From a bacterium (lineage in GTDB: Bacteria; Patescibacteriota; Andersenbacteria; UBA10190): DNA of 63,809 nt. The position numbers and the translations under genes were made by a program. Each line of letters opens with the position of its first letter. The first letter of the stretch is position 1. Location of the stretch: assembly GCA_027624555.1 (NCBI GenBank), contig JAQBWN010000001.1, forward strand, positions 1 through 63,809, given 5' to 3'. This document shows positions 3,150 through 57,271 of this stretch, piece after piece. Below the pieces are notes generated by a model. That model saw only the letters and a list, made by a program, of their open reading frames with translations. It was not told the DNA's origin and did no database searches.

Positions 3150-3197
3150 AACCTGCCCTCACCCTAACCCTCTCCCCAATTGGGGAGAGGGGAACGC
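3150..3197. repeat. GC-rich palindromic repeat, family A (short form)
   Basis: aacctgccctcaccctaaccctctccccaattggggagaggggaacg. The palindrome ctctcccc-aatt-ggggagag is shared with 16032-16096 and 55438-55502. Intergenic between nfo and udg. Confidence 0.8.
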
Positions 3198-3213: not shown

Positions 3214-3795
3214 ATGAACAGAGACGAGAAACGAGCGGCGTTACAGCACTTAAACGCAGAACAACTCCCTATAGTAATTGCAAATTCGAAGCTCCATGAA
3301 GGAACAAAACAAGCAGTGCCGGGGGATGGCAACCCAGATGCTGATATTCTTATTATTGGCGAGGCGCCTGGTAAAAAAGAAGATGAAACAGGAGTGCCGT
3401 TTGTAGGTGCAGCAGGGAAGTTGTTAACGTTACTACTCGAATCTATTGGCATGAAACGGGAGGATATTTTTATCGCTAATGTGATAAAGCATCGTCCGCC
3501 AGATAACCGCGACCCCATCCCTTCAGAAATTGCCGTTTATGCTCCATGGCTGGCAAAGCAGATTGAGATTATTGATCCAAAAATTATCATAACACTCGGA
3601 CGTTTTTCTATGGATTTTATGCTAGGCTCAGGGTTTTCTATATCTCAGATTCATGGCCAGCCAAGAGAAAAAAATGGGAGGGTAATATTGCCATTGTATC
3701 ATCCCGCAGCTGCGCTGTATTCCGGAAAATTACGACCAGTGCTTTTTGAAGATTTCCAAAAAATCCCCAAAATACTTGCTCTCATAGGCAAATAA
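3214..3795 (+). CDS. Uracil-DNA glycosylase, family 4
   Basis: 193 aa. GEAPGKKED motif, FVGAAGKLL, HPAAALY motif B. Confidence 0.88.
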   Translation: MNRDEKRAALQHLNAEQLPIVIANSKLHEGTKQAVPGDGNPDADILIIGEAPGKKEDETGVPFVGAAGKLLTLLLESIGMKREDIFIANVIKHRPPDNRDPIPSEIAVYAPWLAKQIEIIDPKIIITLGRFSMDFMLGSGFSISQIHGQPREKNGRVILPLYHPAAALYSGKLRPVLFEDFQKIPKILALIGK

Positions 3796-3972: not shown

Positions 3973-4047
3973 CTAATAAAAGACAATACTTAGTTTGAAT
4001 TATCTGCCCATTCTGCTATGCTCGTATCACAATTGAATAATAAATAT

Positions 4048-4341
4048 GCCGCGGTAGCTCAGTGGTAGAGCGCAGCCCTGGATCTTCGGGGCCCTTCTCA
4101 GTAATGGGGAGTGTATAAACTGGGTGAACTCGGGGAACACTTTATAGGTGAAAGCCTAGAAAACAATCCCGAGCCAAGCTAAGAAGGGTTTAAGTTTCTT
4201 AGAAGGTGTAGAGACTAGCGAGTGAGTCCCAACAATAATCTCGCAGACAGCGCCCAGCTCCTATGCAAATAGGATGATGATATAGTCCAAATTCAGCCTT
4301 GGAAGAGGCTGGCGTCGACAGTTCAATTCTGTCCCGCGGCA
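4048..4341 (+). tRNA. tRNA, most likely Phe(GAA), interrupted by a group I intron after U33
   Basis: 5' exon 4048-4079: gccgcgg-ta-gctc-agtggta-gagc-g-cagcc-ct. 3' exon 4302-4341: GAAga-ggctg-gcgtc-gacag-ttcaatt-ctgtc-ccgcggc-a. The joined exons give a 72-nt cloverleaf with a short variable arm. Confidence 0.8.
4080..4301 (+). ncRNA. Group I intron (222 nt, no ORF) in the tRNA anticodon loop
   Basis: Follows U33 and ends in G4301. P1: exon gcccu (4075-4079) pairs with ggggc (4088-4092), with a U-G wobble at the splice site. R-like agagactag (about 4210-4218) and S-like gatgatatagtcc (4276-4288) form P7 gacta/tagtc. Confidence 0.8.
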
Positions 4342-5024: not shown

Positions 5025-5600
5025 ATGAAATACAGCAACATCTTGAGACACAAACACCTCACAAACACCATTATTACGCTTACAGCTCTTGTACTCCCTG
5101 CACAGGTAATGGCGTTTGAATTGCCAATACAGATAACTCCCTATATTACGCCCATAGAGGCTACTGAAACTACTCACTCATACCTTTCTGGTACAGTAGT
5201 AGCGAATGCTTCTCCTGTAACAACTGTTACACAGTTAACGAAGCGCACTGTGACTCCTCGTACATATTCAGGCAGCTCAGTAGTAATGGAAGGTATTGCA
5301 AGTTATTACAGTAAAGCCGGGTGTCTTGGGTGTAATCCACTATTTGTGATGGCAAATGGCCAGGTATTGGATGATAACGCTCTTACTATGGCTATCGGTG
5401 CCGATAAGAAACACTTAGTAGGGTACAATGCTCGAGTTACTAATCTTGTAACTGGACAATCTGTTGTAGTTCGAATTACTGACACTGGCGGATTCTACAA
5501 AGACAAATATGGAAACCGAGTAGCCGATCTTACGATTGGAACAAAAAAAGCAATCGGAATGAATGGTGGACTTGGAAAAGTTCGAGTAGAGGTTCTGTAA
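5025..5600 (+). CDS. Secreted RlpA-like double-psi beta-barrel protein
   Basis: 191 aa. N-terminal signal/TM region. C-terminal pattern GIASYY...ANGQVLDD...TMA...RVTNLVTGQSVVVRITDTGGF...RVADL is typical of the RlpA/DPBB family. Confidence 0.6.
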   Translation: MKYSNILRHKHLTNTIITLTALVLPAQVMAFELPIQITPYITPIEATETTHSYLSGTVVANASPVTTVTQLTKRTVTPRTYSGSSVVMEGIASYYSKAGCLGCNPLFVMANGQVLDDNALTMAIGADKKHLVGYNARVTNLVTGQSVVVRITDTGGFYKDKYGNRVADLTIGTKKAIGMNGGLGKVRVEVL

Positions 5601-5607
5601 TTCCAAG

Positions 5608-5682
5608 TTTGTCATGCCGGACTTGATCCGGCATCCAGACAAGCGCGACGTGGATTCCGGGTCACGGCCCGGAATGACAAAC
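5608..5682. mobile_element. MITE-like element (75 bp) with terminal inverted repeats
   Basis: gtttgtcatgccgg...cccggaatgacaaac. The left half matches 33472-33503 and the right half matches 35253-35287 and 4815-4829. No ORF. Confidence 0.7.
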
Positions 5683-15262: not shown

Positions 15263-15334
15263 GCCCCTGTAGTTCAACGGATAGAACGAGCCCGTCCTAA
15301 GGGTTAGATGGAGGTTCGATTCCTTCTGGGGGCA
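15263..15334 (+). tRNA. tRNA-Arg(CCU)
   Basis: Acceptor gcccctg/tgggggc, anticodon stem agccc/gggtt, loop gtCCTaa, T arm ggagg-ttcgatt-ccttc, A73. Confidence 0.85.
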
Positions 15335-15364
15335 CCTTTCGATAAACTCAAGGTAAACAACAAC

Positions 15365-16006
15365 ATGCCAAAAACACCGACATTCGACATCGAACACCAG
15401 TATTGGTCACAAGACATCGCACATATTGCAGGGCTTGATGAGGCTGGAATGGGGGCGCTTGCCGGCCCGGTTATTGCTGGTGCGGTGGTGTTTTCAGAAT
15501 CTGCATTAGAAAAAATTATTGAAAACCAGAAAAGTTTTCCAATTAGAGATAGTAAATTATTATCAGAAAAGCAGCGCGAGAAATCAGCCGTCTTCATTCG
15601 AGAAATAGCACATTTTTTTGCAATTGGAATGGCAAGCGCAGAAGAAATTGATAAAATAAATATTCGCAATGCTTCTCACTTGGCCATGCGACGCGCTATT
15701 GATGGATTAGCAAAAAAACCAGACATGCTTTTGATCGACGGAACGAGTGGCACTATCCACCCAACCATCTTTTCACTGTCTATTATTAAGGGTGATCAAC
15801 TATCGTATTCAATTGCGGCCGCAAGTATTCTGGCAAAAGTTGCGAGGGATTCGATTATGAAAGAATTGCACACGTTGCATCCGGAATATGGGTTTGATTC
15901 CCATAAAGGGTATGGGGCGAAGAAACATATGGACGCGTTGGTACTGCATGGTGCAACAGAACATCATCGGAAATCTTATGCGCCGATAGCAAAGCTTTTA
16001 CAATAA
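15365..16006 (+). CDS. rnhB: Ribonuclease HII
   Basis: 213 aa from ATG 15365 (MPKTPTFDIE...). GLDEAGMGALAGPV, ASILAK, GYG motifs. The track ORF start (15308) lies inside tRNA-Arg. Confidence 0.9.
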   Translation: MPKTPTFDIEHQYWSQDIAHIAGLDEAGMGALAGPVIAGAVVFSESALEKIIENQKSFPIRDSKLLSEKQREKSAVFIREIAHFFAIGMASAEEIDKINIRNASHLAMRRAIDGLAKKPDMLLIDGTSGTIHPTIFSLSIIKGDQLSYSIAAASILAKVARDSIMKELHTLHPEYGFDSHKGYGAKKHMDALVLHGATEHHRKSYAPIAKLLQ

Positions 16007-16031
16007 GTGCAGACCATGCGGCATGCCGCTT

Positions 16032-16096
16032 AACCAGCCCTCACCCTCCCGCCTGCTGGCGAGGATCCCTCCCCCAAATTTGGGATAGGGGATACG
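16032..16096. repeat. GC-rich palindromic repeat, family A (long form, diverged)
   Basis: aaccagccctcaccctcccgcctgctggcgaggatccctcccccaaatttgggataggggatacg aligns along its length with 55438-55502. Confidence 0.75.
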
Positions 16097-16139: not shown

Positions 16140-16373
16140 ATGGCAGTACCAAAGAAACGAACACCGAAGTCAAAGAAAGGGATGCGACGCAGCCATCATG
16201 GCCGAAAACCCGCAAAACTTGCTACGTGCCCAAACTGCAAATTAAGCATAACGTCTCATACTGCGTGCCCTACCTGCGGCATGTACCGTGGAAGACAAGT
16301 GATTGGAATGGCTGCAAAGATCGAAAAAACAGAGAAGAAACGAAAAGCAAAGGCACGAAGTACTGGCGCCTAA
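16140..16373 (+). CDS. rpmF: 50S ribosomal protein L32
   Basis: MAVPKKRTPKSKKGMRRSH... with CPNC...CPTC zinc ribbon. 77 aa, with a Lys-rich tail. Confidence 0.9.
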   Translation: MAVPKKRTPKSKKGMRRSHHGRKPAKLATCPNCKLSITSHTACPTCGMYRGRQVIGMAAKIEKTEKKRKAKARSTGA

Positions 16374-23521: not shown

Positions 23522-25006
<1,485 letters not shown>

Positions 25007-26037: not shown

Positions 26038-27621
26038 ATGCAACTTCCTCCCGAAGTACAAACGGTTATCGAAAAACTTAATTCCGCTGGTTTTGAGGCG
26101 TATGCCGTCGGCGGATGCGTGAGGGATCTTTTACTAGGCAAAGAACCAAAAGATTGGGATATAACTACTTCTGCAAATCCCGATGAAATACAAAAAGTAT
26201 TTCCGAATTCTTTTTATACGAATAATTTTGGAACGGTAACTGTTCGCACTGGCGCTTCCCGCCAAAGCTCCCACCCCCTCCAACTCCCCCTCGGGCAGGG
26301 GGAGAGAACTGCGACACCTATCTCGGAAATCGAAGTTACGACATACCGCATAGACGCGGGGTATAACGATCAGCGGCATCCGGATTCTGTGACGTTTACG
26401 AAAAGTTTAAAAGAGGATTTGGCGAGACGGGATTTTACGGTGAATAGTATGGCGTTAGCGCCCGGCCCCTCAACACCAGGTGTTGGCGCGTTAACACCTG
26501 GTGTTTTCCCGCCGGGCGCCAGCGACACCGTCGTCATCGACGGCATGACGATCATCGACCCATTTGGCGGATTACAAGATTTACACAACCAATTGATTCG
26601 CGCGGTTGGCACGCCAAGCGAACGGTTTTCTGAAGATGCGCTTCGCTTAATGCGCGCCGTACGATTTTCTGCACAGCTTTCATTTAAGATAGAAGAACAT
26701 ACACTCAAAGCGATTACAGAATATGCGCCATCAATTACTGCCGTATCTCATGAACGCATTTGCGATGAATTAATAAAAATTGTTGAAAGTAAAAATCCCG
26801 AAAACGGAATGAACGTATTGCAACAAACCGGGCTGCTTGCTTTAATACTCCCCGAAGTTCAAGAGGGGGTTGGTGTAGGGCAAAATAAACATCACATTTA
26901 CACTGTCTTCGACCACTGCATTAAATCTTTACAATATGCTGCGCATTTTGAATATCCACTGCATGTTCGCCTGGCTGCACTTTTTCACGATATCGGGAAA
27001 CCCCGCACTAGAAGGCTTGCGCCTTCAGTGCAGGGCAAGGCCCCTGATTATACTTTTTATGGGCATGATATTGTCGGCGCACGCATGACGGAACACCTCA
27101 TGAAACGATTAAAGTTTTCGAGTGAACTGACGAAGCAAGTAAGCCACCTCGTTCGCCAACACATGTTTTATTACGATGTGGATAAAGTCACACCGGCTGG
27201 CGCACGAAGACTACTCCGAAGAGTTGGGAAAGAAAATTTTGGCGATTTAATTAAACTCCGCATTGCCGAACGCAAAGGTTCTGGCGTTCCAAAAGCAGAG
27301 CCGTACAGGCTACGCCATTTGCAGTTCATGGTAGAAAACGCTTCTAAGGAACCAATATCCGTAGGCCAGCTTGCTATCTCGGGCAATGAATTAGTGAACG
27401 ATTTAGGTATGCGTCCAGGACCAATATTCGGCGGAATACTAAATGCATTACTCGCAGAGGTATTAGAAGACCCGAAGAAAAATACAAAAGAATATCTCTT
27501 GCAGCGAGCAAGTGAGATAAAGGATAAAAGCCCAGATGAACTTAAAAAACTTGGAGCAATTGCAATTGAAGAGGAAGAGAAAAAACAGGAAGAAGAGATA
27601 AAACGAAAATATCACGTGTAG
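26038..27621 (+). CDS. cca: CCA-adding enzyme (class II nucleotidyltransferase with HD domain), carrying two in-frame repeat insertions
   Basis: 527 aa from ATG 26038 (MQLPPEVQTVIEKL...). GGCVRD motif, RDFTVNSMA, DALRLMRAVRF, HDIGKP. The track ORF start (25915) lies over tRNA-Ile. Confidence 0.88.
   Translation: MQLPPEVQTVIEKLNSAGFEAYAVGGCVRDLLLGKEPKDWDITTSANPDEIQKVFPNSFYTNNFGTVTVRTGASRQSSHPLQLPLGQGERTATPISEIEVTTYRIDAGYNDQRHPDSVTFTKSLKEDLARRDFTVNSMALAPGPSTPGVGALTPGVFPPGASDTVVIDGMTIIDPFGGLQDLHNQLIRAVGTPSERFSEDALRLMRAVRFSAQLSFKIEEHTLKAITEYAPSITAVSHERICDELIKIVESKNPENGMNVLQQTGLLALILPEVQEGVGVGQNKHHIYTVFDHCIKSLQYAAHFEYPLHVRLAALFHDIGKPRTRRLAPSVQGKAPDYTFYGHDIVGARMTEHLMKRLKFSSELTKQVSHLVRQHMFYYDVDKVTPAGARRLLRRVGKENFGDLIKLRIAERKGSGVPKAEPYRLRHLQFMVENASKEPISVGQLAISGNELVNDLGMRPGPIFGGILNALLAEVLEDPKKNTKEYLLQRASEIKDKSPDELKKLGAIAIEEEEKKQEEEIKRKYHV
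26268..26315. repeat. GC-rich palindromic repeat, family B (short form), in frame inside cca
   Basis: ctcccaccccctccaactccccctcggg-cagggggagagaactgcgac. The first 28 nt are identical to 50515-50542. Translated as ...SSHPLQLPLGQGERTAT... Confidence 0.8.
26458..26519. repeat. GC-rich nested palindrome, in frame inside cca
   Basis: gcgcccggc...aacaccaggtgtt-ggcgcg-ttaacacctggtgtt...gccgggcgc. Translated as APGPSTPGVGALTPGVFPPGA between RDFTVNSMA and IDPFGG. Confidence 0.7.
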
Positions 27622-30976: not shown

Positions 30977-31480
30977 ACTTAATAACTACGAACCGCCTCT
31001 GGCAGTTCCTCTAGACAACAAAATCATCCTAGAGAATAAGGAATTAAAGTGTAAGATTTTTTGTCTGTGGGTTGATTTATATTTCTTATTGTAAGGTTCT
31101 GAACTTTGACAATTTACTATAACGAAAGAAAGAAGATTCTATTGCAAAGAATCAAGAAAATAGATCACGCATGTAGATAGTAATAATGTATTACTAGCTC
31201 ATGCAATGCATATCCAAAAACTGTGACAAATAAAGTGAAATAATCATGTGTCATACACCGTTAAGAGTATATGGTGGATGCCTTGGTAATAGACAACGAT
31301 GAAGGACGTGGCCGGCTGCGATAAGCTACGGGTAGGTGCTGAGCAACCGATGATCCGTAGATTTCCGAATGGGGAAACCCCTTTACCGTAATTGGTATTG
31401 ACTACCTTGCTGCAAGGCAGGGATAGGGATAACCTGGCGAATTGAAACATCTTAGTAGCCAGAGGAAAAGAAACGAACGA

Positions 31481-31577
31481 TTAATTATTATTTTGTAGTT
31501 AGTAGCCAGTAGTGAGTAGTGCGTTTACGCGTCCTACTTACTACGAACTAAAACCTATTTAGTAAGTAATTAGTTAC
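31481..31577 (+). other. AT-rich expansion segment / intervening sequence in 23S domain I
   Basis: Inserted between ...gaaaagaaacgaacga and attcccccagtagtggcgagcgaa, which are contiguous in E. coli 23S. Internal hairpin: gtagtgagtag (31509-31519) with ctacttactac (31534-31544). Confidence 0.75.
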
Positions 31578-31872
31578 ATTCCCCCAGTAGTGGCGAGCGA
31601 AAAGGGAGGAGCCTAAACCATGTATGCGTAATAGCTCATAAGGCGTTGCATATGTGGGGTTGCAAGGTAATGCACTGTAAATTTATGAAAAACAAACGAA
31701 ATGTAAATGTCTGTCTAGAAGAACGCGGCTGGAATGCCCGACCATAGAGGGTGAGAGTCCCGTACACGAAAGATACAATTACTTCGTTCGCATTACCTTA
31801 AGTAGGGCGGGACACGTGAAATCCCGTTTGAATCCGGGAGGACTAAACTCCCAAGGCTAAATATGTCTATTA

Positions 31873-31911
<39 letters not shown>

Positions 31912-33377
31912 CACCCCGTTAAGGGGAATGAAATAGACCTGAAACCATATACTTACAGAGAGTAGGAGCTCCGCATTTATGCGGGGTGACTGCGTGCTTT
32001 TTGCAGAACGAACCATCGAGTTCGCTGTATGCCGTTTGCTTAAGTCTCATTCGAGACGGAGGCGTAGCGAAAGCGAGTATTAATAGTGCGTTTATAATGG
32101 CATGCACGAGACCCGAAACCGGGTGATCTATCCATGAGCAGGGTGAAGTTTTGCGAAAGCAAAATGGAGGCCCGAACCCGTTGGCCGTTCAATACCATGG
32201 GATGACTTGTGGATAGCGGAGAAATTCCAATCGAACCCGGAAATAGCTGGTTCTCGTCGAAATAGCTTTAGGGCTAGCCTCGTGAGTTACCCAAGAGAGG
32301 TAGAGCACTGCAAGGGATTAGAGGGCTTTACGTTCTCAACCCTAGCAAACTCCGAATACTCTTGGCTTTCATCACGGGAGTCAGAACGTGGGGGCTAAGC
32401 TCCACGATCAAAAGGGAAACAGCCCAGATCATAACTTAAGGTCCCAAAATGCTGCCTAAGTGGTTAAGGTGGTGGAGTTGCACAGACAGCGAGGCAGTTG
32501 GCTTAGAAGCAGCCACCTGTTAAAGAAAGCGTAATAGCTCACTCGTTAAGCGATTCTGCGCCGAAAATTCAACGGGGCTCAAGGCAGCTACCGAAAGTAT
32601 GAATGCCCTCGCCTTAAAACGAGGGCGTGGTAGACGAGCGTTTCATTTGCGTCGAAGGTGTACCGTGAGGTCCGCTGGAGCGAATGAAAGTGAGGATGAT
32701 GGTATAAGTAACATGACACATGGTGAGAACCCATGTCACCGTAAATCTAAGGTTTCCTGGGCAATGTCGATCATCCCAGGGTTAGTCGATCCTAAGCTCA
32801 GGCCGAAAGGCGTAGGCGATGGACAGCAGGTTAATATTCCTGCACCGACTATATAGTTCGTATAGCATGACGAATCGTCGCACCTTGTCAGGACATATGA
32901 CTTATTCCTGCGCGGCACATGTAGTTGGACCGCTTTGGTAAATCCGGGTGGTTTCCGCTTCGGCGGGTAACAGTGAAGTGTCTCGGGAGAGCGCGAGCTT
33001 CGGCTCAAACCTCTATAAGGAAAGAAGGTTCCCGGAAAAGTGTAGTACGATTTCCTATATGGCCGATCGTACCGAAAACCAACACAGGTAGATGGATGTA
33101 AGTGCATTAAGGTGATCGGGAGAACCCTCGTTAAGGAACTCGGCAAAACAGCAGCCGTACGTTCGCAATAAGGCTTCCCGTTATGGCTCGCAAGAGTTGT
33201 GACGGGCGCAGCGCAAGATCCCTGGCGACTGTTTACCAAAAACACAGGTTCCTGCTAACTCGTAAGAGGATGTATAGGAGCTGACTCCTGGCCAGTGTCG
33301 GAACGTTAAACCCGCTTGTTAACGCGAGTGGGCCAAGCGCCGATGAACGCCGGCCGTAACTATAACGGTCCTATGGT

Positions 33378-33730
33378 AGAGGAATTTACCCCAATATTAT
33401 ATATTGTGGCTTTTGCTGCCTTAGTAAAACTTAGCTATATGCTGGAAACCCTGAGTATCTCAAGATACTAATTTGTCATTCCGGACTTGATCCGGAATCC
33501 AAGTAGTGAAAATTCTTGAGTGCAGACAATCAGCAGGAAACCATTCTGTAAAAAGAATAGGATCCTCAGAGACTACACGCTAGGCCCTGAACCCCACGTG
33601 GTTTAGGGATGATATAGTCCGACCTGTATGGCGACATACAGAGCTTGCGAGAAATCGTAAGCCACGTAATTGGTAAAAAAGCGAAACTTAACGAAGAAAA
33701 TAATCGAGAGACAATACGTCGTAACATTCG
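33378..33730 (+). ncRNA. Group I intron in 23S rRNA (about E. coli position 1931), no ORF
   Basis: Interrupts ...aacggtcctatggt | agcgaaattccttg.... The 5' exon ends in U and the intron ends in G33730. Canonical R element tcagagactacacg (33566-33579) and S element gatgatatagtcc (33608-33620). P8: ccctgaacc/ggtttaggg. Confidence 0.85.
33472..33503. repeat. MITE-like left-end module nested inside the 23S intron
   Basis: tttgtcattccggacttgatccggaatccaag parallels 5609-5640 (tttgtcatgccggacttgatccggcatccaga). Confidence 0.7.
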
Positions 33731-34283
33731 AGCGAAATTCCTTGGCAGGTAAGTTCTGTCCCGCACGAATGGAGTCACGACTGGGGAACTGTCTCAACGA
33801 GGGACCCGGTGAAATTGCAATGTCGGTAAAGATGCCGCCACCCTGCGGCTAGACGGAAAGACCCCATGAAGCTTCACTGCAACTTGGTATTGGCTCTTCG
33901 AACATAATGCTCAGTATAGGTGGGAGACTATGATGGCTCTGCTTCGGCGGAGTCGGAGTCACAATATGAGATACCACCCTTTATGTTTGACGCGTCTAAC
34001 AGCGTAGTGTGAAACCACTACCTGGACAGTGCCTGGTGGGTAGTTTATCTGGGGCGGATTCCTCATAAATTGTAACTGAGGAGCCTATAAGGTCAGCTAG
34101 ATACGGATGGAAACCGTGTCGATAGTGCAAAGGCATAAGCTGGCTTCACTGCAAGACATACATGTCGCGCAGACACGAAAGTGGAGCTTAGTGAACCGAC
34201 CGTTCTCATATAGAAGAGCGGAAGATCATCGGATAAAAGCTACTCTGGGGATAACAGGCTTATCTCCCCCAATAGTCCACATA

Positions 34284-34318
<35 letters not shown>

Positions 34319-34540
34319 CTATCCTGGGGCTGAAGAAGGTCCCAAGGGTTTGGCTGTTCGCCAATTAAAAGGGTACGCGAGCTGGGTTCAAACCGTCGCA
34401 AGACAGGTTGGACCCTATCTGTCGCAGGCGTGGAAACTTGAGGATCGTCCTTCCTAGTACGAGAGGACCGGAAGGGACCAACCTCTGGTGTACCAGCTGT
34501 TCAGTTCTTGAGCATTGCTGGGTAGCTACGTTGGGCTGGT

Positions 34541-34572
<32 letters not shown>

Positions 34573-34910
34573 CAATCCAAGACCAGGTTTCGTATGAGAC
34601 TCCTAGAAGACTACTAGGTTGATAGGTGGGAGGTGTACGCGCAGCAATGCGTTGAGCCGACCCATACTAATTAGTCCAGTTGTATGAATACGTGTTTATT
34701 TCACTTGACGTGAACTGAAACGGTTCGTACTTCCTCGCAAGATATAAATATTAGAATAAGCAATTAGGTCTAGTAAAAGGGAAGGCAAGTCACAGTGATG
34801 TATACGCAAAGCTGGGCTAGTAATATATTAGTACTATTACATAGCGTGATCATATATCTTGTTCAAGTAATAGAGTTTTCTTTCTTTCGTTTATATTTCT
34901 TCGATCTAAT

Positions 34911-49899: not shown

Positions 49900-50676
49900 A
49901 TGGACACTTTTCAACTTTATCCAATCGGATCCATCCTAAGCAGACCCGAAGAAGCCACTCAAGGATATCTAGATATCGTCAGCTTATTACCTCAAAATAT
50001 AAAGGATATTCTTGCTGCTCCCAATTCCGCTGCTTTCGTCCTTGGCATTGTTAAAAGCTACAACATAAGTGAAGCTCAGGCGCCAAGTATTGCCTTTGAG
50101 ATTCTTGAGGTAGCTATTGGCAAGAAAACTTTTGCTCAGCTTTCGGGAGTTTTTGTTGCAGAACTTGGACTTGCACCCGATCAAGCTCAAAAAATGGCAC
50201 TAGAAATTGAGAAAGATATATTTGGGCCGATTAAGGGGGAATTGGATGAATTTTTGCGAGGGCAAAAGGGTAGCGAGACAACCCCGAGTATCGCTTCTCC
50301 CCAGCCTTCGCTAAAGCTTCGGCCGGCAGGCACCCCACCCAACCTCCCCTCAGTCAGCGGGAGAGGCGCGGCGCAACCTAACAATTTGCTAGACCTGAAA
50401 GAAATAGCTGCTGCGAAGAGGCAGGAGCAGTTGGCGGGGAAACCGACGCAAAAACAGTTACCTAAACGACAGGTGACAGCGCGGATTGCGCCTCCGCAAC
50501 AGCCACCTGCGCCACTCCCACCCCCTCCAACTCCCCCTCGGGCCCCACTTCGCCCGCTGGCTTCGAGGGGCGCAGCAGGGGGAGAGAACGCTACGACGCC
50601 TACGTTTCCCTTGCCAGCACGCACACCTCTACCAAAGCCGGCGGTTTCTCCGCTTGATTTTAGTAAGTATCAATAA
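49900..50676 (+). CDS. Hypothetical protein with a Pro-rich C-terminal half containing a family-B repeat
   Basis: 258 aa. No TM helices. The repeat at 50515-50597 is translated as ...PPPPTPPRAPLRPLASRGAAGGENATT... Confidence 0.5.
   Translation: MDTFQLYPIGSILSRPEEATQGYLDIVSLLPQNIKDILAAPNSAAFVLGIVKSYNISEAQAPSIAFEILEVAIGKKTFAQLSGVFVAELGLAPDQAQKMALEIEKDIFGPIKGELDEFLRGQKGSETTPSIASPQPSLKLRPAGTPPNLPSVSGRGAAQPNNLLDLKEIAAAKRQEQLAGKPTQKQLPKRQVTARIAPPQQPPAPLPPPPTPPRAPLRPLASRGAAGGENATTPTFPLPARTPLPKPAVSPLDFSKYQ
50515..50597. repeat. GC-rich palindromic repeat, family B (long form), in frame inside a CDS
   Basis: ctcccaccccctccaactccccctcggg + 33-nt extra module + cagggggagagaacgctacgac. The flanks match 26268-26315. 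Confidence 0.8.
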
Positions 50677-51136: not shown

Positions 51137-51838
51137 ATGGCAATGTTTGACATGATGAGCCCCCCACTCAAAGGCAAGGCGAGTCAAAATTTAGTACATA
51201 TCTCTGAGTTACGCGATGGAATTGTTATACTGCAAGACGGTACAATGCGATGCGTCATGATGATATCTTCCGTAAACTTCGCATTAAAGTCCGAAGAAGA
51301 ACAAAATGCCATCATTTATGCGTATCAAGACTTTATCAACTCTCTCGATTTTCCTATTCAGCTTACTGTTTCATCAAGAAAAATGGATATCACACCATAC
51401 TTAGAAGAAGTAAAACATCTTCGTGATTTGCAAAAGAACGAATTGCTACATTTACAAATGACAGAATACATTAATTTTATATCCGAGCTCGTAAAAGGAA
51501 GTAATATTATGACAAAAACATTTTTTGTCACTATCCCTTTCTCTGCTTCACAAGATAAAAAAGAAGGATTTTTCTCACGTATCGGTAAAGGAGCAAAAGG
51601 GGCAGTAGGTAAGGGAAAAATGACTGATATCGAATTTGAGCACAACAAAACTCAAGTTACGCACCGCGTTGAACAAGTTGCAATTGGGCTGCGGGGCATT
51701 GGGCTGCGCGTGGTTCCGCTCAAAACGCAGGAGCTGTTGGAATTGTTCTATAACTACTTTAATCCGAACACATCTCGTAACCAACGCCTGCGCAATGTAG
51801 ATAAATTAACTATTCAAGAAACTGACGCACCGCTATGA
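51137..51838 (+). CDS. Soluble protein resembling the N-terminal (non-ATPase) domain of VirB4/TraC
   Basis: 233 aa. ...ISELRDGIVILQDGTMRCVMMISSVNFALKSEEEQNAII...FPIQLTVSSRKMDITPYLEEV... parallels the N-terminal layout of the downstream VirB4. No Walker motifs. ATGA overlap with the next gene. Confidence 0.45.
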   Translation: MAMFDMMSPPLKGKASQNLVHISELRDGIVILQDGTMRCVMMISSVNFALKSEEEQNAIIYAYQDFINSLDFPIQLTVSSRKMDITPYLEEVKHLRDLQKNELLHLQMTEYINFISELVKGSNIMTKTFFVTIPFSASQDKKEGFFSRIGKGAKGAVGKGKMTDIEFEHNKTQVTHRVEQVAIGLRGIGLRVVPLKTQELLELFYNYFNPNTSRNQRLRNVDKLTIQETDAPL

Positions 51839-53664
51839 GTATCTTTACTTCACTCTTTCCAAAGAAACCGAAAGAGCAAACACCTGCAAAAATTGATAAG
51901 GAATCTCAAAATATCATGCATCAATTTGATACAGGAGTTTCTTCACTTCGAGACATTCTTGCACCATCAGCTTTTAAAGTGAACACGAAATCAATTGAAA
52001 TCGACGGAAAATTTGCTACTACCATATACGTAACTACATATCCGAGGTATTTGGATACGAACTGGTTTGCTTCTATTGTTAATTTTGACGTTGAATTTGA
52101 TGTAGCAATGTTTATCTACCCACAAGATTCCGCAACTATTTTGAAAGAGCTACGAAAGCGAATAACCCAGGTATCTACATCTATTTCTATGCAGGCAGAG
52201 CAGGGCAAGGTAAGAGACCCTCAACTTGAAACTGCATACCAAGACATTGAAGAATTGCGAGACCGCCTTGTGCAAGGAACAGAGCGATTTTACCAGTATG
52301 GTTTATACATTACGGTATATGCCAACAGCGAAGAAGAATTGGACGATATATTATCTCAAGTAGAAGTACTCCTCGAGGGGCGCCTCATATATGCCAAGCC
52401 TGCACTCTTTCAAATGGAGCAAGGGTTTGACTCTACATTACCACTCGGACATGACACGCTCGTTGTAAACACTAATATGAATACGTCGCCACTTTCTACC
52501 AGCTTTCCATTTGTAAGCTCCGACCTCACGAGCAACTCTGGTGTTCTCTACGGAATTAATCTGCACAACAGTAGTCTCGTGCTGTTTGACCGGTTCAGTT
52601 TAGAAAATGCGAACATGGTTATCTTTGCAAAATCCGGTGCCGGAAAAAGCTACACGGTAAAGCTCGAGATTTTACGGAGCCTCATGTTTGGTACGGAAAT
52701 TATCGTCATCGACCCGGAACAAGAATACCGCTATTTAGCTGAAGCAGTAGGTGGGGCCTACCTGCAAATTGCCATTGCGTCAGACCATCGTATCAATCCG
52801 TTTGATTTACCAACACTCGGGGAAGACGAAAACCCAGAAGCAGTCCTGCGAGAAAATATCACCCGCCTTATCGGGCTTATATCTCTCATGGTAGAAGGGA
52901 TGACTGCGGAAGAGCAATCCATTGTCGATAATGCGCTTTGGGAAACGTATGCTTTAAAAGATATTACTCGCGGTGCGAAATGGGACAAGCCAGAAGTGCC
53001 AACGCTTCAGGACTTCTACAACATTACAAAAGATATGGAGGGCGGGAAGAACGTTGCAACCAGATTACAACGCTTCGTGGAAGGTACTTTTGCTGGGGTA
53101 TTTAACCGAGCAACGAACATAGACCTCGACCAACAGCTCATTGTGTTCAATATTCGAGATATGGAAGAAGAGCTTCGCCCGATTGCCATGTATGTAGTAC
53201 TTGGTTTTATTTGGAATAGGATACGAAGCCAGCTCAAGCGACGAATCCTCGTGGTGGATGAAGCTTGGATTATGATGCGCAATGAGGAATCTGCGAAGTT
53301 CTTATTCTCAATGGCAAAACGTGCCCGTAAATACTATCTCGGCGTTACCACTATTACCCAAGATATTTCTGACTTCCTGGGGTCTAAATACGGAAAGCCC
53401 ATAGTAACAAACTCGTCTATTCAATTGCTCTTACGTCAATCTCCCGCGGCAATTGATGCTCTTTCGGAACTGTTTTACCTCACCGACCATGAAAAGTTCC
53501 GCTTACTCGAAAGCGACGTAGGGGAGGGTATCTTTTTTGCTGGATTAAAACACGTGGCGATTAAAGTAGTTGCAAGCTATGCGGAAGACCAGGTGATAAC
53601 ATCGGATCCGCAGCAAATTTTGGCAATTGAAGCGGCGAAGAAAGAATTGAGTAATAATGCATAG
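51835..53664 (+). CDS. VirB4/TrbE/PrgJ-family T4SS ATPase
   Basis: 609 aa. Typical N-domain (YVTTYPRYLDTNW...QGKVRDPQLETAYQDIEELRD), Walker A AKSGAGKSY, Walker B ILVVDEAW, ITQDISDF. Confidence 0.85.
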   Translation: MSIFTSLFPKKPKEQTPAKIDKESQNIMHQFDTGVSSLRDILAPSAFKVNTKSIEIDGKFATTIYVTTYPRYLDTNWFASIVNFDVEFDVAMFIYPQDSATILKELRKRITQVSTSISMQAEQGKVRDPQLETAYQDIEELRDRLVQGTERFYQYGLYITVYANSEEELDDILSQVEVLLEGRLIYAKPALFQMEQGFDSTLPLGHDTLVVNTNMNTSPLSTSFPFVSSDLTSNSGVLYGINLHNSSLVLFDRFSLENANMVIFAKSGAGKSYTVKLEILRSLMFGTEIIVIDPEQEYRYLAEAVGGAYLQIAIASDHRINPFDLPTLGEDENPEAVLRENITRLIGLISLMVEGMTAEEQSIVDNALWETYALKDITRGAKWDKPEVPTLQDFYNITKDMEGGKNVATRLQRFVEGTFAGVFNRATNIDLDQQLIVFNIRDMEEELRPIAMYVVLGFIWNRIRSQLKRRILVVDEAWIMMRNEESAKFLFSMAKRARKYYLGVTTITQDISDFLGSKYGKPIVTNSSIQLLLRQSPAAIDALSELFYLTDHEKFRLLESDVGEGIFFAGLKHVAIKVVASYAEDQVITSDPQQILAIEAAKKELSNNA

Positions 53665-53666
53665 AG

Positions 53667-54125
53667 ATGACAGAGCAACAGGAAAGGGAGCAGCAAGTTG
53701 CATTAAACGCTAAGAGAAATCGTAAATTCCAACAAGATTTTCGTGGAGACTTGCTTAAAGCTAGGCAAGACACTAAAGAAGAGGAAGAAATTCCCCAAGA
53801 ATCAATTCAAAAAAGAAGATTAAACATATTAAAAGCGGGTGCTATTAAAGAAGCAAATGCAAGGACTGGCGGAGCCGTAGGCGCTAGTGTGGGGGGTGCG
53901 GTGGGTTCTATTATTCCGTTTATTGGTACTGGTATTGGGGCGTTTTTGGGGCGTTTTGTAGGAAAAAAATTAGGAATTACCGGATTTATTCTTATCGCGC
54001 TCCTCGCAATTGCGTTCCAAGCTATTCTATTTATTCTCGTAGTAAAAGGGTATTGTGATAGCTTAGGGTATATTGGACAAGCAGCAGATTATTTAACCGT
54101 TGGCATATGTCAAAATTTCAAATAA
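53667..54125 (+). CDS. Hypothetical membrane protein (T4SS-like cluster)
   Basis: 152 aa. Charged N-terminus, Gly-rich TM (GGAVGASVGGAVGSIIPFIGTGIGAFLG) and a second TM. Confidence 0.5.
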   Translation: MTEQQEREQQVALNAKRNRKFQQDFRGDLLKARQDTKEEEEIPQESIQKRRLNILKAGAIKEANARTGGAVGASVGGAVGSIIPFIGTGIGAFLGRFVGKKLGITGFILIALLAIAFQAILFILVVKGYCDSLGYIGQAADYLTVGICQNFK

Positions 54126-54883
54126 TTTTTTTAGGTTTCTTCATCACTTTTCTTGCCAATGGCTCTGCGTTGCCTGCATTTGCACAAATGGGTCCGGAAG
54201 GAGACCCTTTTAAAGATCCGGCAGGGTTTGGGAAATTCGAAGTTGGCTTACCTGGAATACCTAAAGATACATTTATTGCGGACTTTGTAAGCGGAGAAAA
54301 ACCAATTTTGGATTTTATAAATCTTGCAGTGAACGCCGTAATTGCAGTACTCGTGATAATTGGCCTTATTACGATAGTTATTGGCGGATATATTTATATG
54401 ACGGCGTCCGGTGATGCTTCTCGGGTTAAAACGGCGAAAGAAATGATAATAGCTGCACTTGCCGGCATATTTCTTTCTCTTGTTTCCGTTATTATCCTCA
54501 ATACAATTAATTCATATCTCGGTAGTGGTGCCGAAGAACCTAAGCTAGGCGAGCCATCAAACGGGTCAACACCAGGTGGAGGAGGCGGAAGTGGCGGTTC
54601 AAGCGGCGGTGGTTCCGGTGGAGGTGGTGGCGAGCTACCTGATGGTGGTGGAAACACGGGCGGGGGCTCAGGGATCGGTAATGGCGGTAATAATGACAAT
54701 ACCCAACCTTCACTCGATCAACTGGATCGGCTGCGTACTATTACAGTAGGTGAGATTGTTGTTTTACAAAACGAGCTTGAAAACATAAACCTTACCTCGG
54801 AGCAGAAAGCACTCTACACTGCAAATTTGACCGACGCGCAAAACAGATTAGCTGAATTTAATCGACAATTAGCTGTTCCTTAG
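54107..54883 (+). CDS. VirB2/TrbC-like T4SS pilin candidate with a long Gly-rich C-terminal extension
   Basis: 258 aa. Signal peptide (...ALPAFAQ), two TM helices flanking a short charged loop (YMTASGDASRVKTAKEMIIAALAGIF), then GGGGSGGSSGGGSGGGGG and a helical tail. Confidence 0.5.
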   Translation: MSKFQIIFLGFFITFLANGSALPAFAQMGPEGDPFKDPAGFGKFEVGLPGIPKDTFIADFVSGEKPILDFINLAVNAVIAVLVIIGLITIVIGGYIYMTASGDASRVKTAKEMIIAALAGIFLSLVSVIILNTINSYLGSGAEEPKLGEPSNGSTPGGGGGSGGSSGGGSGGGGGELPDGGGNTGGGSGIGNGGNNDNTQPSLDQLDRLRTITVGEIVVLQNELENINLTSEQKALYTANLTDAQNRLAEFNRQLAVP

Positions 54884-56117
54884 TAGATAGAGCCGTCAGC
54901 AGCCACCACAGTGCCGATAAGTCGTTTTTCCAGTAGATAGTGTCGAATAAACCGAATATAAGGATAGATATGAGGGCGAGAGTGGTTGCGTGTTGATGCG
55001 TTGCGCTTCTCCCACCCCCTCGGCGTATTGCGACAATGTTTAGGCCAATAAAGCTTACCAAGCCGACCACACCGACGTTTAGCCAAAACGAAATTATCCA
55101 GTTATGCGGGTCGCGGAAGACGAACTCGGGTATTAGCTTATAGCTTTTAGCTTCGCTAGCTTCATTAGCTTGCGTTGCGAATAATGCATGTAGCTCGGCT
55201 TGGTATGCTGGCTCAAATTGCCCGAGGCCGATACCTAATATAGGGTTTTTTTGAATTAAACGAACGCCAATATCCCACAATTGCAGCCGAACGGTAGCGG
55301 AATTGGAAGTATTTTGGTGAATAAGAGGGGAAACAAGGTACTGGATGCGTCCGGAGAGGGTGAAAAAGGCGAATATGAGAATAAATAACATTAAAAGTAA
55401 TAGTGCGGATAATGGCAAACCATACTGTATGCCGCCTAACCTGCCCTCACCCTCCCGCCTGCGGGCGAGGAGCCCTCTCCCCAATTGGGGAGAGGGGAAA
55501 CGGACCGTAAACAAAAACCCTATCAACGCAGTTCCAGCTATCGCGACAACTGCTCCAAACGACTGCGTCCAAATAATAGTTATTAGCATTATTAGGGATG
55601 CAAGCTGATAAAAACGATTTTTTTGCTGCATCCCGACCCAAAAAGCTATAAAAAAAACAGGACTTAAAAATAACGCGAGGGAGTTGGGCACGTCGTAAAT
55701 GCTTTGAATCCGTCCAAAACCGTCTATTTGCGATATACCAAGCAGGGCTACTACGAGACCCGACATAATTAACGAATGAATCACTTTTTTCCGATCAGCA
55801 GTATGTATTAACAGCCCAAACAGCATCGGAACCACAACCCAACCCTTTAGTATTCCTAAGCTAGAGCGCAACACGGGCGAAAATAGCGTAGAAACCACGG
55901 CAGACAGTAAGAATAAACACGCAAAGAGCGTAAAGCTGCGTGGCAGAGCTCGAAGCGCACTAAATAATCGATGGCGCGATTTTTTATTCCAAATAGCACT
56001 AATAAAAACCGTAATAACTAATATCTCAAAAAGATTTATAGGGATGCCAAGTAAAGAAAATCTAATGATATACGTAGGGAGTAGACCTGCCAGTGCCACC
56101 ATAAGCGTTGTAATCAC
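54858..56117 (-). CDS. O-antigen ligase / polymerase-like (Wzy_C) membrane protein carrying a family-A repeat in frame
   Basis: 419 aa (GTG start). At least 10 TM helices. PHNWIISFWLNVGVVGL motif. The repeat is translated as FPSPQLGRGLLARRREGEGRLGG. Confidence 0.65.
   Translation of the reverse strand: MITTLMVALAGLLPTYIIRFSLLGIPINLFEILVITVFISAIWNKKSRHRLFSALRALPRSFTLFACLFLLSAVVSTLFSPVLRSSLGILKGWVVVPMLFGLLIHTADRKKVIHSLIMSGLVVALLGISQIDGFGRIQSIYDVPNSLALFLSPVFFIAFWVGMQQKNRFYQLASLIMLITIIWTQSFGAVVAIAGTALIGFLFTVRFPSPQLGRGLLARRREGEGRLGGIQYGLPLSALLLLMLFILIFAFFTLSGRIQYLVSPLIHQNTSNSATVRLQLWDIGVRLIQKNPILGIGLGQFEPAYQAELHALFATQANEASEAKSYKLIPEFVFRDPHNWIISFWLNVGVVGLVSFIGLNIVAIRRGGGRSATHQHATTLALISILIFGLFDTIYWKNDLSALWWLLTALSTKEQLIVD
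55438..55502. repeat. GC-rich palindromic repeat, family A (long form), in frame inside a CDS
   Basis: aacctgccctcaccctcccgcctgcgggcgaggagccctctccccaattggggagaggggaaacg. Same ends as 3150-3197, which lacks the internal cccgcctgcgggcgaggagc module. Confidence 0.8.
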
Positions 56118-57271
56118 AGGGCAAGCAGAACGAGTAAAATATATGGAATCAATACGTGCGGGTACAGCAAGCTATTTGTAAACTGAGAGTGCACAAGCAA
56201 AAACACCGTTGCCCATATATACAGGAATGAATAGTGCCTTATAAAACCGAGCAATATTGGGATGAGAAATAAAGCCGTACCTATAATACCCGTTGTAACA
56301 AGCAGGGTAAGAATACTACTATCGGAGCCACCCCGTGAATGGATCTGATAATTAGATATGAGGCCAGCATCCTTCGCTGCCACCTGATACGCATTGTACC
56401 CAACCCCTAAAAAGATATGTGGCTCAACTAAGCGTCTCCAAACGTCTTTATATGCTTCCATTCGAATGGCGATAGTGGGGTCGTGAAAGAATATTTGCCT
56501 CGCTCTTTCCTGTAATACTATCCCTGCAAATGCCACAACAATGCCTAGCGTAATAAGCCCAGGGAGTACCATCTTCTTCCATTGCTTTGGGAACGACGAA
56601 GAAAATAGCCAAACTACACAACACACACAAAGAGCAACGGTAGCTGCAATAAATGTACTGCGAGATTTAGTAAGCAGTATTGCTATGGAACCCATCATAA
56701 AAAACCCTATCCGCATGGCTTGAGAGCGCGCCCAAAGAACAACAGCAGGAAGAGATAGGGCTAAAAACGCTCCAAAAAAATTTGGATCAAACCAAGTTCC
56801 AACCATTCTTTGTATATGCGGGTCCCATCCATTTCCAAAACCAAACAAACTTGGGAAAAATATGAGCTGTAAAAAACCAAAGCTCAAAAGAATAGCATAT
56901 GTGTACACAAAGGCCTTTTTTGCATATGCCTTTACTTCGGCTTTCTGTAATATTGCCATACCAAATGGATACAAGAGGACAATACTTGCAAGACGCACCC
57001 AATAGAGAAGGGCAATCACTATTTCACTTTGCTGTAGCTGGCTACTATGCAGTAGTAAAGTCGATATACTCCAGAGAAGAAAAGGTGAAACTATGAGGGG
57101 CGAGGAGGGGAACGACAACGCTGCAACTAGCAAGAATAAAACAACAGCGATGTCGCTTACGAGAATACCGCCACCCTGACCAGCTACTACAAACCTAATA
57201 CTTTGGCCTACTATAAGTGACGCAAAAAGGAGAGCTATTGCAGTTTTCGCAAAAAACGTTGAATGCGCCAT
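56114..57271 (-). CDS. O-antigen ligase / polymerase-like membrane protein (paralog)
   Basis: 385 aa, at least 10 TM helices. A loop followed by HSRGGSDSSILTLLVTTGIIG resembles the Wzy_C signature region. Confidence 0.55.
   Translation of the reverse strand: MAHSTFFAKTAIALLFASLIVGQSIRFVVAGQGGGILVSDIAVVLFLLVAALSFPSSPLIVSPFLLWSISTLLLHSSQLQQSEIVIALLYWVRLASIVLLYPFGMAILQKAEVKAYAKKAFVYTYAILLSFGFLQLIFFPSLFGFGNGWDPHIQRMVGTWFDPNFFGAFLALSLPAVVLWARSQAMRIGFFMMGSIAILLTKSRSTFIAATVALCVCCVVWLFSSSFPKQWKKMVLPGLITLGIVVAFAGIVLQERARQIFFHDPTIAIRMEAYKDVWRRLVEPHIFLGVGYNAYQVAAKDAGLISNYQIHSRGGSDSSILTLLVTTGIIGTALFLIPILLGFIRHYSFLYIWATVFLLVHSQFTNSLLYPHVLIPYILLVLLAL

Follow-up and report, generated by a model that had tools for sequence, protein, structure and literature searches.

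We analysed positions 1 to 63,809 of contig JAQBWN010000001.1 (assembly GCA_027624555.1), from a bacterium of the Andersenbacteria, in the candidate phyla radiation (CPR; Patescibacteria); this whole stretch of DNA is called the window below. Our subject is a short, GC-rich palindromic repeat that has three copies in the window, one of them lying in frame inside a gene for a membrane protein of the O-antigen-ligase family. The repeat is laid out as a C-rich arm, a loop, a G-rich arm and then a second G-rich segment, the "third strand". In a sister genome most copies are joined in inverted pairs, which we call composites, and the in-gene copy is best described as part of such a pair. The features that matter are the following.

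54858-56117, minus strand: host gene, intact, encoding a 419-aa polytopic membrane protein of the Wzy_C / O-antigen-ligase family
3150-3197, plus strand: copy 1, solo short form, intergenic
16003-16096, plus strand: copy 2, long form with a decayed hairpin (CCCTCCCCCAAATTTGGGATAGGG)
about 55406-55500, plus strand: copy 3, the right half of a composite of two motifs, decayed and antisense to the host gene
55407-55437, plus strand: copy 3, composite-centre remnant, with a decayed left third strand GGATAATGG (consensus GGATGAGGG) and the module CAAACCATACTGTATGCCGCC; no left hairpin
55444-55452, plus strand: copy 3, third strand CCCTCACCC (complement GGGTGAGGG)
55454-55472, plus strand: copy 3, long-form module CCCGCCTGCGGGCGAGGAG, a small hairpin in place of the motif's 2-3 nt loop 2
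55473-55496, plus strand: copy 3, terminal hairpin CCCTCTCCCC-AATT-GGGGAGAGGG, the C arm and G arm of the triplex motif, with a 10-bp stem

Copy 1 occupies most of the 70-nucleotide (nt) gap between an endonuclease IV-like open reading frame (ORF) at 2280-3143 and a uracil-DNA-glycosylase-like ORF at 3214-3795. Copy 2 is located between an RNase HII-like ORF (15308-16006), whose stop codon is overlapped by the 5′ end of the repeat, and an L32-like ORF (16140-16373). The ORF that holds copy 3 matches Pfam Wzy_C at 9.3e-18, and the homologues of its product, where named, belong to Candidatus Andersenbacteria (CPR/Patescibacteria).

An earlier reading of the window, made from its letters and a list of its ORFs (the sequence-only reading), had reported three copies of a palindromic repeat, the third one inside the intact 419-aa ORF 54858-56117 and read there as FPSPQLGRGLLARRREGEGRLGG. 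All three are where it placed them, in the same (+) orientation, and the in-frame position of the third is as described. The limits that it gave for the in-gene copy, 55438-55502, locate the element correctly and need redrawing at both ends. The two long copies are 84% identical across 94 nt (16003-16096 versus 55409-55502), so the in-gene element begins about 30 nt upstream of that start, and it ends at about 55499-55500. Dinucleotide-preserving shuffles gave an expectation of 0.00-0.01 matches for the shared patterns, and zero for the 53-nt exact pattern match of copy 3; chance is therefore no explanation for the copies.

The same reading saw GC-rich elements in AT-rich surroundings, all folding as hairpins. 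The elements are indeed GC-rich, at 62-69% against 43.8% for the contig, but surroundings with 44% GC are hardly AT-rich. The 10-bp hairpins are present in copies 1 and 3 (z = -3.1 and -4.2), whereas that of copy 2 has decayed (z = -0.9). A second, small hairpin also folds in copy 3.

Two other identities were considered and rejected. The sequence that follows the hairpin in copies 1 and 2 (GGGGAACGCCTTACG or GGGGATACGCTAAAT) lacks the T-run that an intrinsic terminator would have. The search of Rfam returned no family for the repeat at gathering thresholds; a match to the small RNA (sRNA) family whalefall-1 scored 17.9 bits against a gathering threshold of 37, did not recur on the sister-genome copies and is treated as chance. 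That match is full-length (55443-55496, minus strand; E = 0.02 on the 211-nt search), and this repeat class may include some of the "sRNA motifs" described from metagenomes.

Relation to the BoxC/PIT/TM_ECO motif

The intrastrand triplex motif TM_ECO has the published pattern CCCTCNCCC-N3-6-GGGNGAGGG-N3-GGGNGAGGG (Holder et al. 2015, PMC4666352), and was earlier named BoxC and the PIT element (PMC4666352; Bachellier et al.; Hoyne et al. 2000). It has 3610 occurrences across 262 proteobacterial genomes. In vitro, its G-rich strand in isolation folds into a stable intrastrand triplex of the purine-motif type; tests in vivo gave no triplex signal and neither promoter nor terminator activity, and local genomic instability has been linked to the motif (PMC4666352). 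All 23 copies in Escherichia coli K-12 are intergenic, and five sites there are inverted pairs, each made of a type A and a type B motif (PMC4666352).

Copy 1 of the window, read on the minus strand at 3156-3191, is CCCTCTCCC-CAATTG-GGGAGAGGG-TTA-GGGTGAGGG, an exact TM_ECO of type A, for which the chance expectation is 0. Copy 3 fits the pattern only when loop 2 is allowed up to 30 nt, a 19-nt hairpin module replacing the 3-nt loop, and copy 2 shows mismatches in its arms. The mirror symmetry of G arm and third strand is present in the sequence, the folds modelled here being Watson-Crick hairpins. Judged by these patterns, the element is a member of the BoxC / PIT / intrastrand triplex motif class, and the long form is a variant of it. 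The strictly intergenic location that marks the K-12 copies is not shared by the window, where copy 3 is in frame in the Wzy_C gene. Intergenic location is a descriptive trait of the E. coli copies and not part of the definition of the motif.

The sequence-only reading had called the repeat family A; it is not a new family, its short form being exactly the published motif (PMC4666352). Its short and long forms are real in the window, but their modularity is general to the motif class rather than special to this genome. The generalised architecture was found in at least 120 IMG/VR contigs. Among the 157 matches listed, on contigs of 49-73% GC, 115 have a spacer of 0-4 nt and 42 a hairpin spacer of 19-29 nt; the long form also occurs there in genomes of 57-73% GC.

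The in-gene copy and the protein loop

On the gene strand, copy 3 encodes residues ~207-237 (FPSPQLGRGLLARRREGEGRLGGIQYGLPLS) of the ligase-like protein. In an alignment of 28 homologues, six orthologues (P0004, P0005, P0008, P0010, P0011 and P0012) lack the insert, and their loop at this place is shorter by about 24 aa; the conserved residues downstream of the insert are all intact in the window protein. An AlphaFold model built with the homologue alignment as input (predicted local distance difference test, pLDDT, 84.6; predicted template modelling score, pTM, 0.85) has residues 207-237 in the stretch that links helix 187-206 to helix 236-254, and its pLDDT falls below 50 at 212-233. The extra segment had been proposed to be lineage-specific and to fall in a loop of the membrane protein; the six orthologues that lack it and the two flanking helices of the model agree with both proposals. 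As modelled, the insert is a disordered, Arg-rich loop between two transmembrane helices, and by the positive-inside rule this loop is probably cytoplasmic. Not only the insert is Arg-rich; so are the short native loops of the insert-free orthologues.

Peptides encoded by the motif were found in 8 of 120 homologues, and in seven of the eight they lie in this same loop, where three or more forms or frames of the motif are represented. The forms seen in the loop are PSPQLGRG...EGEG, PSPVLGEGGGEG and LSPIGERVRVRA, the last being the AATT short form read in the sole open frame of the G strand. The length of the loop is variable among orthologues. The loop is either unusually tolerant or a preferred target.

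The closest orthologue, P0002 (locus L121; 63% identity by BLASTP), has a complete 144-nt composite at the same codon and in frame. Its locus is syntenic with the window, sharing the second Wzy_C paralogue, glycosyltransferases, a type IV secretion-like pilin and VirB4 genes. The same element is present at the same codon in the independent assemblies L121, L135 and L138, and contigs from the source run cover both junctions of the element; among the contigs of the runs that have the locus, no excision joints were seen. On the simplest reading of these sequences, there would have been a single ancestral insertion and then an in-frame loss of ~57 nt (19 codons) in the window lineage.

Compared with L121, the element has 91.4% nucleotide identity (85/93) and 90% identity at third codon positions (codon-aligned), whereas the rest of the gene has 69.1% nucleotide identity, 49% at third positions, which are saturated, and 68% amino acid identity. 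It follows that the host gene has been under purifying selection with the insert in place, and that the insert DNA has been held constant by something besides protein function. Candidates are a structural or recognition constraint, homogenisation from other copies, and later re-insertion at the site.

Composites and DUF559 cassettes

The exact AATT-loop form was found in 21 stretches of GTDB species representatives, 17 of which come from one Andersenbacteria metagenome-assembled genome (MAG), SMAG_U8178, referred to here as the sister MAG. The remaining matches fall one each in another Anderseniibacteriota MAG, a Methylomirabilis MAG, a deltaproteobacterium and an Asaia MAG. With a relaxed pattern, about 32 copies of the motif appear in the sampled loci of the sister MAG. 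For the source metagenome (run X1), the summed unitig depth, which is not assignable to one genome, is 5.6-6.7 beside the element and ~70 at its hairpin core, and the core depth in two groundwater metagenomes is ~1,700. The assembly graph of run X1 breaks at the element, where one loose end has the left module of the composite. The family clearly has many more than three copies, and the count of three given in the sequence-only reading holds for the window but not beyond it. Its picture of a dispersed, multi-copy palindromic repeat is supported by the copies in the sister MAG and by the source depth, ~10-fold over the flanks. Its further step, to a small mobile element, is one that we infer from distribution.

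Most copies in the sister MAG are paired, the complete unit being a composite of 120-150 nt in which two inverted motifs have their hairpins outward and their third strands inward. It begins on the left with the hairpin TCCCTTCTCCCC-AATT-GGGGAGAAGG, followed by a small hairpin that varies and then by the third strand of the left motif, GGATGAGGG. A central module separates this from the third strand of the right motif, CCCTCACCCT, and the right hairpin, CCCTCTCCCC-AATT-GGGGAGAGGGGAA, closes the unit after an intervening AA or 19-nt module. The terminal inverted repeats are TCCCTTCTCCCCAATTGGGGAGAAGG ... CCCTCTCCCCAATTGGGGAGAGGGGAA, and the whole composite folds end to end (z about -5). At least nine such two-motif composites were aligned in the sister MAG. 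Copies 2 and 3 of the window align to the right part only; their left hairpin is absent and their left third strands are decayed (GGATAATGG, CAATAAGTG). The centre remnant listed above for copy 3 (55407-55437) was delimited by alignment with the composites of L121, L125, L138 and L122.

The same motifs bracket a gene. Two contigs of the sister MAG end in the same 165 nt, a reverse-complemented long form followed, 30 nt on, by the ORF start MSVGVLHNRARSTLVRRSLRRIVPEPEQRLWYFLRGKRLSGHKF. Two other contigs of that MAG begin with the same 101 nt, which encode ...GIRIVRFTNDEVMKNINGVVQSIASMLPSP* and take their stop from the TAA of a short-form motif. The flanks of all four contigs diverge directly past the outer hairpin edge. 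Both fragments pass the Pfam threshold for DUF559 (PF04480; 20.8 and 28.0 bits versus 20.6), and a degraded copy of the DUF559 cassette, with both motifs present, is at L137 2319-2619. Together with the composites, these fragments indicate that the same inverted motif pair brackets either a short module or a DUF559 gene.

Comparable arrangements are seen far from the Andersenbacteria. In E. coli K-12, the DUF559 gene ycjD ends ...RRSPSP* within a degenerate motif, and a canonical TM_ECO lies ~170 nt downstream. Between ycjD and that TM_ECO, the last ~60 nt of ycjD recur as a partial duplicate (GAGACGGTGCTGGAGAATATTC...; L143 7200-7440), which looks like a rearrangement scar at a cassette end. 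A prophage-like contig of 70% GC from IMG/VR (L014 / L146) has a DUF559 gene between the large terminase and portal genes, with motifs on both sides; these prophage motifs run contrary to the published statement of no phage association. In two metagenome loci, whole DUF559 cassettes with motif-derived linkers are part of a host ORF in its reading frame, a large methyltransferase-like one in L189 and an RdgB/Ham1-like one in L201, so that a nuclease domain is nested in a host protein with the frame unbroken.

We collected 80 metagenomic DUF559 loci with a YcjD-based profile and analysed the 69 that are not E. coli-like (30-71% GC). A motif-type hairpin was found within 300 nt of the DUF559 gene in 50 of the 69, and on both sides in 25. 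Near the gene there are 102 motifs in 38.4 kb (2.66 per kb), and beyond 600 nt there are 14 in 192.9 kb (0.073 per kb), a near-gene enrichment of ~37-fold that exceeds what an effect of intergenic location could give. Upstream motifs are mostly hairpin-then-G-strand (22 versus 6) and downstream motifs mostly C-strand-then-hairpin (25 versus 12), an orientation bias that can be written hairpin-G3-[gene]-C3-hairpin. About half of the downstream hairpins begin within 11 nt past the end of the protein match.

A broader hairpin definition gave 37 loci with both ends, which were used for a test of concordance. The upstream motif and the reverse-complemented downstream motif align with a mean score of 24.2 within a locus and 12.6 between loci; none of 20,000 permutations reached the within-locus score (p < 5e-5), and the partner from the same locus was the best match in 18 of the 37 loci. 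Hamming concordance of 9-mers, a measure blurred by register shifts, gave p = 0.02. The loops of upstream and downstream motifs are mutually reverse-complementary. The arm sequence varies by lineage (CCCTCTCCC, CCTTCCCCC, CCCTCCCCC, CCCCTCCT), and the third strand remains the mirror of the G arm throughout. The match within loci, loops included, indicates that the flanking motifs are true terminal inverted repeats, present as lineage-specific variants that co-vary with the gene.

Some published results fit a partnership of motif and nuclease. A homing endonuclease of a group I intron belongs to the Vsr/DUF559 clade of PD-(D/E)XK nucleases (PMC3424549), and a survey of predicted programmed inversions found "DUF559 domain-containing protein" 14-fold enriched among genes lying between inverted repeats (PMC9881135). 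Our literature search, which covered open-access papers and preprints, returned no paper linking DUF559 with BoxC or triplex motifs; an earlier report elsewhere is possible.

Origin of the in-gene element and its wider meaning

That the ligase-like gene contains a decayed triplex-motif composite is shown above. On the simplest reading, one composite entered the loop-coding part of the gene in the common ancestor of the window and sister genomes, and survived there because the landing frame was open and the loop tolerates extra residues; the window lineage later lost the left hairpin in frame, with the ~57 nt (19 codons) noted above. The best explanation overall, and in our judgement probably the right one, adds that the composites derive from a DUF559-driven cassette. 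They would have arisen by internal deletion, as non-autonomous elements, from a small and selfish cassette, and in that cassette a gene for a DUF559 (Vsr-like PD-(D/E)XK) nuclease stands between the same two inverted motifs. The nuclease may recognise its cognate motif ends and drive the spread of the cassette and its derivatives, in a relation that we liken to that of REP-associated tyrosine transposases (RAYT) to repetitive extragenic palindromes (REP), or of insertion sequences (IS) to miniature inverted-repeat transposable elements (MITEs). The nucleotide conservation of the in-gene copy would then reflect DNA-level constraint or homogenisation, not protein function. The ~37-fold enrichment of motifs flanking DUF559 genes suggests just such an autonomous/non-autonomous relationship, and it is from distribution that we infer mobilisation. 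We put forward more tentatively, at somewhat less than an even chance, the broader statement that BoxC repeats are the terminal inverted repeats of a very widespread class of tiny mobile DUF559 cassettes, not recognised before, which as gene-less derivatives or sometimes as whole cassettes colonise, in frame, loops of essential and membrane proteins from E. coli to the CPR.

Several observations weigh against spread driven by DUF559. The Andersenbacteria gene is seen only as two contig-end fragments, the contigs breaking inside it; its 44-aa N-terminal fragment, which offers too few shared words, gave no match in a database of 5.8 billion proteins. There is no DUF559 gene in the 64-kb window, and no contig of the source metagenome is at least 85% identical to the 5′ part of the sister MAG's gene; its absence from window and source sample would fit a lineage with decaying copies. 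The association is weak in the reverse direction, a DUF559 gene being present in one of the 120 motif-bearing IMG/VR loci listed, which fits a model of few masters and many solos but is no evidence for it. The sequence-only reading had advised looking for target-site duplications, and no direct repeat stands beside any of the nine aligned composites. No pair of empty and filled sites was definable between the window and the sister-MAG loci, where synteny is confined to the ligase locus and one other gene, with different genes upstream. For a nuclease of ~110 aa, we know of no strand-transfer activity.

The E. coli record counts on both sides. Holder et al. found no association of the motif with mobile elements in that species, and their motif counts per strain are 19-30, 1-2 and 6-15, by strain group (PMC4666352). 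The fabI-sapF gap is filled by ycjD in phylogroups A, B1 and C and by eefRABCD in the others (PMC12817139). The correlation between ycjD and motif count is suggestive, and it is phylogenetically confounded. We take the strains with 19-30 motifs to be those of phylogroups A, B1 and C, those with 1-2 to be B2, and those with 6-15 to be D, E and F; strains of D, E and F would then have 6-15 motifs though ycjD is reported absent from the locus.

DUF559 genes could equally home into motif pairs that already exist, and this is the main rival to DUF559-driven spread. The repeats would in that case have been moved or made by other means (another transposase, replication slippage or templated repair), and the genes, selfish and of homing type, would preferentially enter such pairs or persist between them. 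Inverted pairs without a gene are common, both as type A plus type B pairs in E. coli (PMC4666352) and as the Andersenbacteria composites; most motifs are distant from any DUF559 gene, the E. coli lineages reported without ycjD keep their 6-15 motifs, and a homing endonuclease is known in the same fold family (PMC3424549). Homing into ready-made pairs accords less well with motifs that co-vary with their locus down to the loop sequence, or with duplicated Andersenbacteria cassettes that part from their flanks exactly at the outer hairpin edges. Both observations show motif plus gene behaving as one unit. As no other candidate enzyme gene was seen beside the motifs either, we regard this rival as rather unlikely.

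Two further explanations concern the in-gene copy more directly. The motif might be kept for the benefit of the host as a DNA or RNA structure (a triplex or G-quadruplex with a part in replication, recombination or mRNA stability) and be functional in the ligase gene. The decay of copy 2 and of the left half of copy 3, the many orthologues that lack the insert and the lack of a T-run after the hairpin in copy 1 or copy 2 all speak against such a benefit, as do the E. coli data, with no promoter, terminator or in vivo triplex signal and with unstable motif loci (PMC4666352). In its favour are the nucleotide conservation of the in-gene copy, far above synonymous saturation, a third strand that stays the mirror of the G arm across lineages, and the stable triplex formed by the isolated strand in vitro (PMC4666352); on balance we find it improbable. 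It is very improbable indeed that the segment was never inserted and is a native low-complexity loop resembling the repeats, or an assembly artefact. Loop length does vary among orthologues, but the 53-nt exact pattern match has zero chance expectation, copies 2 and 3 are 84% identical over 94 nt, the same element is at the same codon in the independent assemblies L121, L135 and L138, and source-run contigs span both junctions.

With DUF559-driven composites as the preferred explanation, the repeat can be set beside known systems. It resembles BoxC/PIT/TM_ECO in the identical pattern of copy 1, in being GC-rich, highly conserved and dispersed in many copies, and in its frequent inverted pairs with third strands facing; neither shows target-site duplication. 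It differs in its host, an Andersenbacterium of the CPR (44% GC) and not a proteobacterium, in its AATT loop, in a long form with a 19-nt loop-2 hairpin, and in the conserved central modules that join pairs into units of 120-150 nt. Copies here lie in frame in conserved protein genes, unlike the E. coli K-12 copies, of which 23 of 23 are intergenic.

Rickettsia palindromic elements (RPEs) are likewise short palindromic repeats found in frame in conserved genes, to which they add surface or loop segments. The organism (Andersenbacteria) and the composition of 62-69% GC argue against a relation, RPEs being longer, not GC-rich and restricted to Rickettsia. We know of no nuclease-bearing master copy among RPEs.

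REP and REP-doublet (REPIN) systems with RAYTs share the proposed logic of a few gene copies with inverted cognate repeats and many solo or paired repeats elsewhere; they also share repeat variants that co-vary with the gene, and the lack of target-site duplication. There, however, the flanked gene is an IS200/IS605-like HUH Y1 transposase and the repeat a simple REP hairpin, whereas here the gene is a DUF559 (PF04480) Vsr-like PD-(D/E)XK nuclease, the repeat is of the three-segment triplex type, and the activity is a predicted one. IS-derived MITEs resemble the composites in having terminal inverted repeats, a short non-coding centre and ends shared with a gene-bearing version; the composites, unlike MITEs, come without target-site duplication or a DDE transposase. 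Homing endonucleases of the I-Bth0305I type illustrate that the Vsr/DUF559-like fold is able to serve a mobile, self-propagating gene (PMC3424549). I-Bth0305I sits in a phage group I intron, whereas the gene considered here involves no intron and has structured inverted repeats at its two ends.

The window has other repeats, some of them in frame inside ORFs. At 26268-26310 there is a further variant of the triplex-type motif (CTCCCACCCCCTCC-AA-CTCCCCCT-CGGGC-AGGGGGAG), read in frame as SHPLQLPLGQGER, and at 26450-26527 a palindrome with 35-nt arms, read in frame as APGPSTPGVGALTPGVFPPGA; both are inside a CCA-adding-enzyme/poly(A)-polymerase-like ORF ending at 27621. The family of the latter palindrome, read on the other strand (GKTxGVNAKTPxVEE), also occurs in several ligase orthologues. 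More motifs of the triplex type are at 50327-50370 and 50515-50590, in frame inside ORF 49900-50676. One of them repeats 29 nt of the 26268 copy exactly, its hairpin loop enlarged by an extra module, which is the same short/long modularity as in the three-copy family. A different repeat, TTTGTCAT(G/T)CCGGACTTGATCCGG(C/A)ATCCA, has two copies (5589-5637 and 33453-33501), and IPDLIRNP-type peptides in the ligase orthologue P0017 look like members of this family in frame.

The 33453-33501 copy is inside a group I intron of the 23S rRNA gene. Two group I introns exceed the Rfam threshold, at 33383-33641 and 4029-4311, the one in 23S among them. The 4029-4311 intron adjoins a tRNA-like 5′ half (4042-4080) in a tRNA cluster, at a place where ARAGORN calls no tRNA; an intron-split tRNA is possible there. 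The 16S and 23S rRNA genes (23522-25004 and 31251-34689) are ~6 kb apart, with tRNAs and protein ORFs between them and 5S after 23S. The host gene and its tandem Wzy_C paralogue (54858-56117 and 56114-57271) adjoin a VirB4/TraC-like ATPase ORF (51835-53664) and a Gly-rich ORF (54107-54883). The L121 counterpart of the Gly-rich ORF has a weak match to a type IV secretion system pilin, and the arrangement of 51835-57271 is kept in the sister genome.

BoxC/triplex-motif repeats have been unexplained since the 1990s. The copies described here extend the class to the CPR, Holder et al. having matched TM_ECO in proteobacterial genomes. In small, gene-dense genomes the motif is repeatedly translated inside conserved proteins, a polytopic membrane protein included. 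Such insertions enlarge and diversify protein loops, and they leave misleading low-complexity "PSPxxGEG / GERVRVRG" peptides in databases. In many lineages, our survey finds cognate inverted triplex motifs on the two sides of DUF559 nuclease genes. Should the nuclease prove to be the partner enzyme of the motif, the nature of BoxC and the role of DUF559/YcjD would both be directly testable in E. coli.

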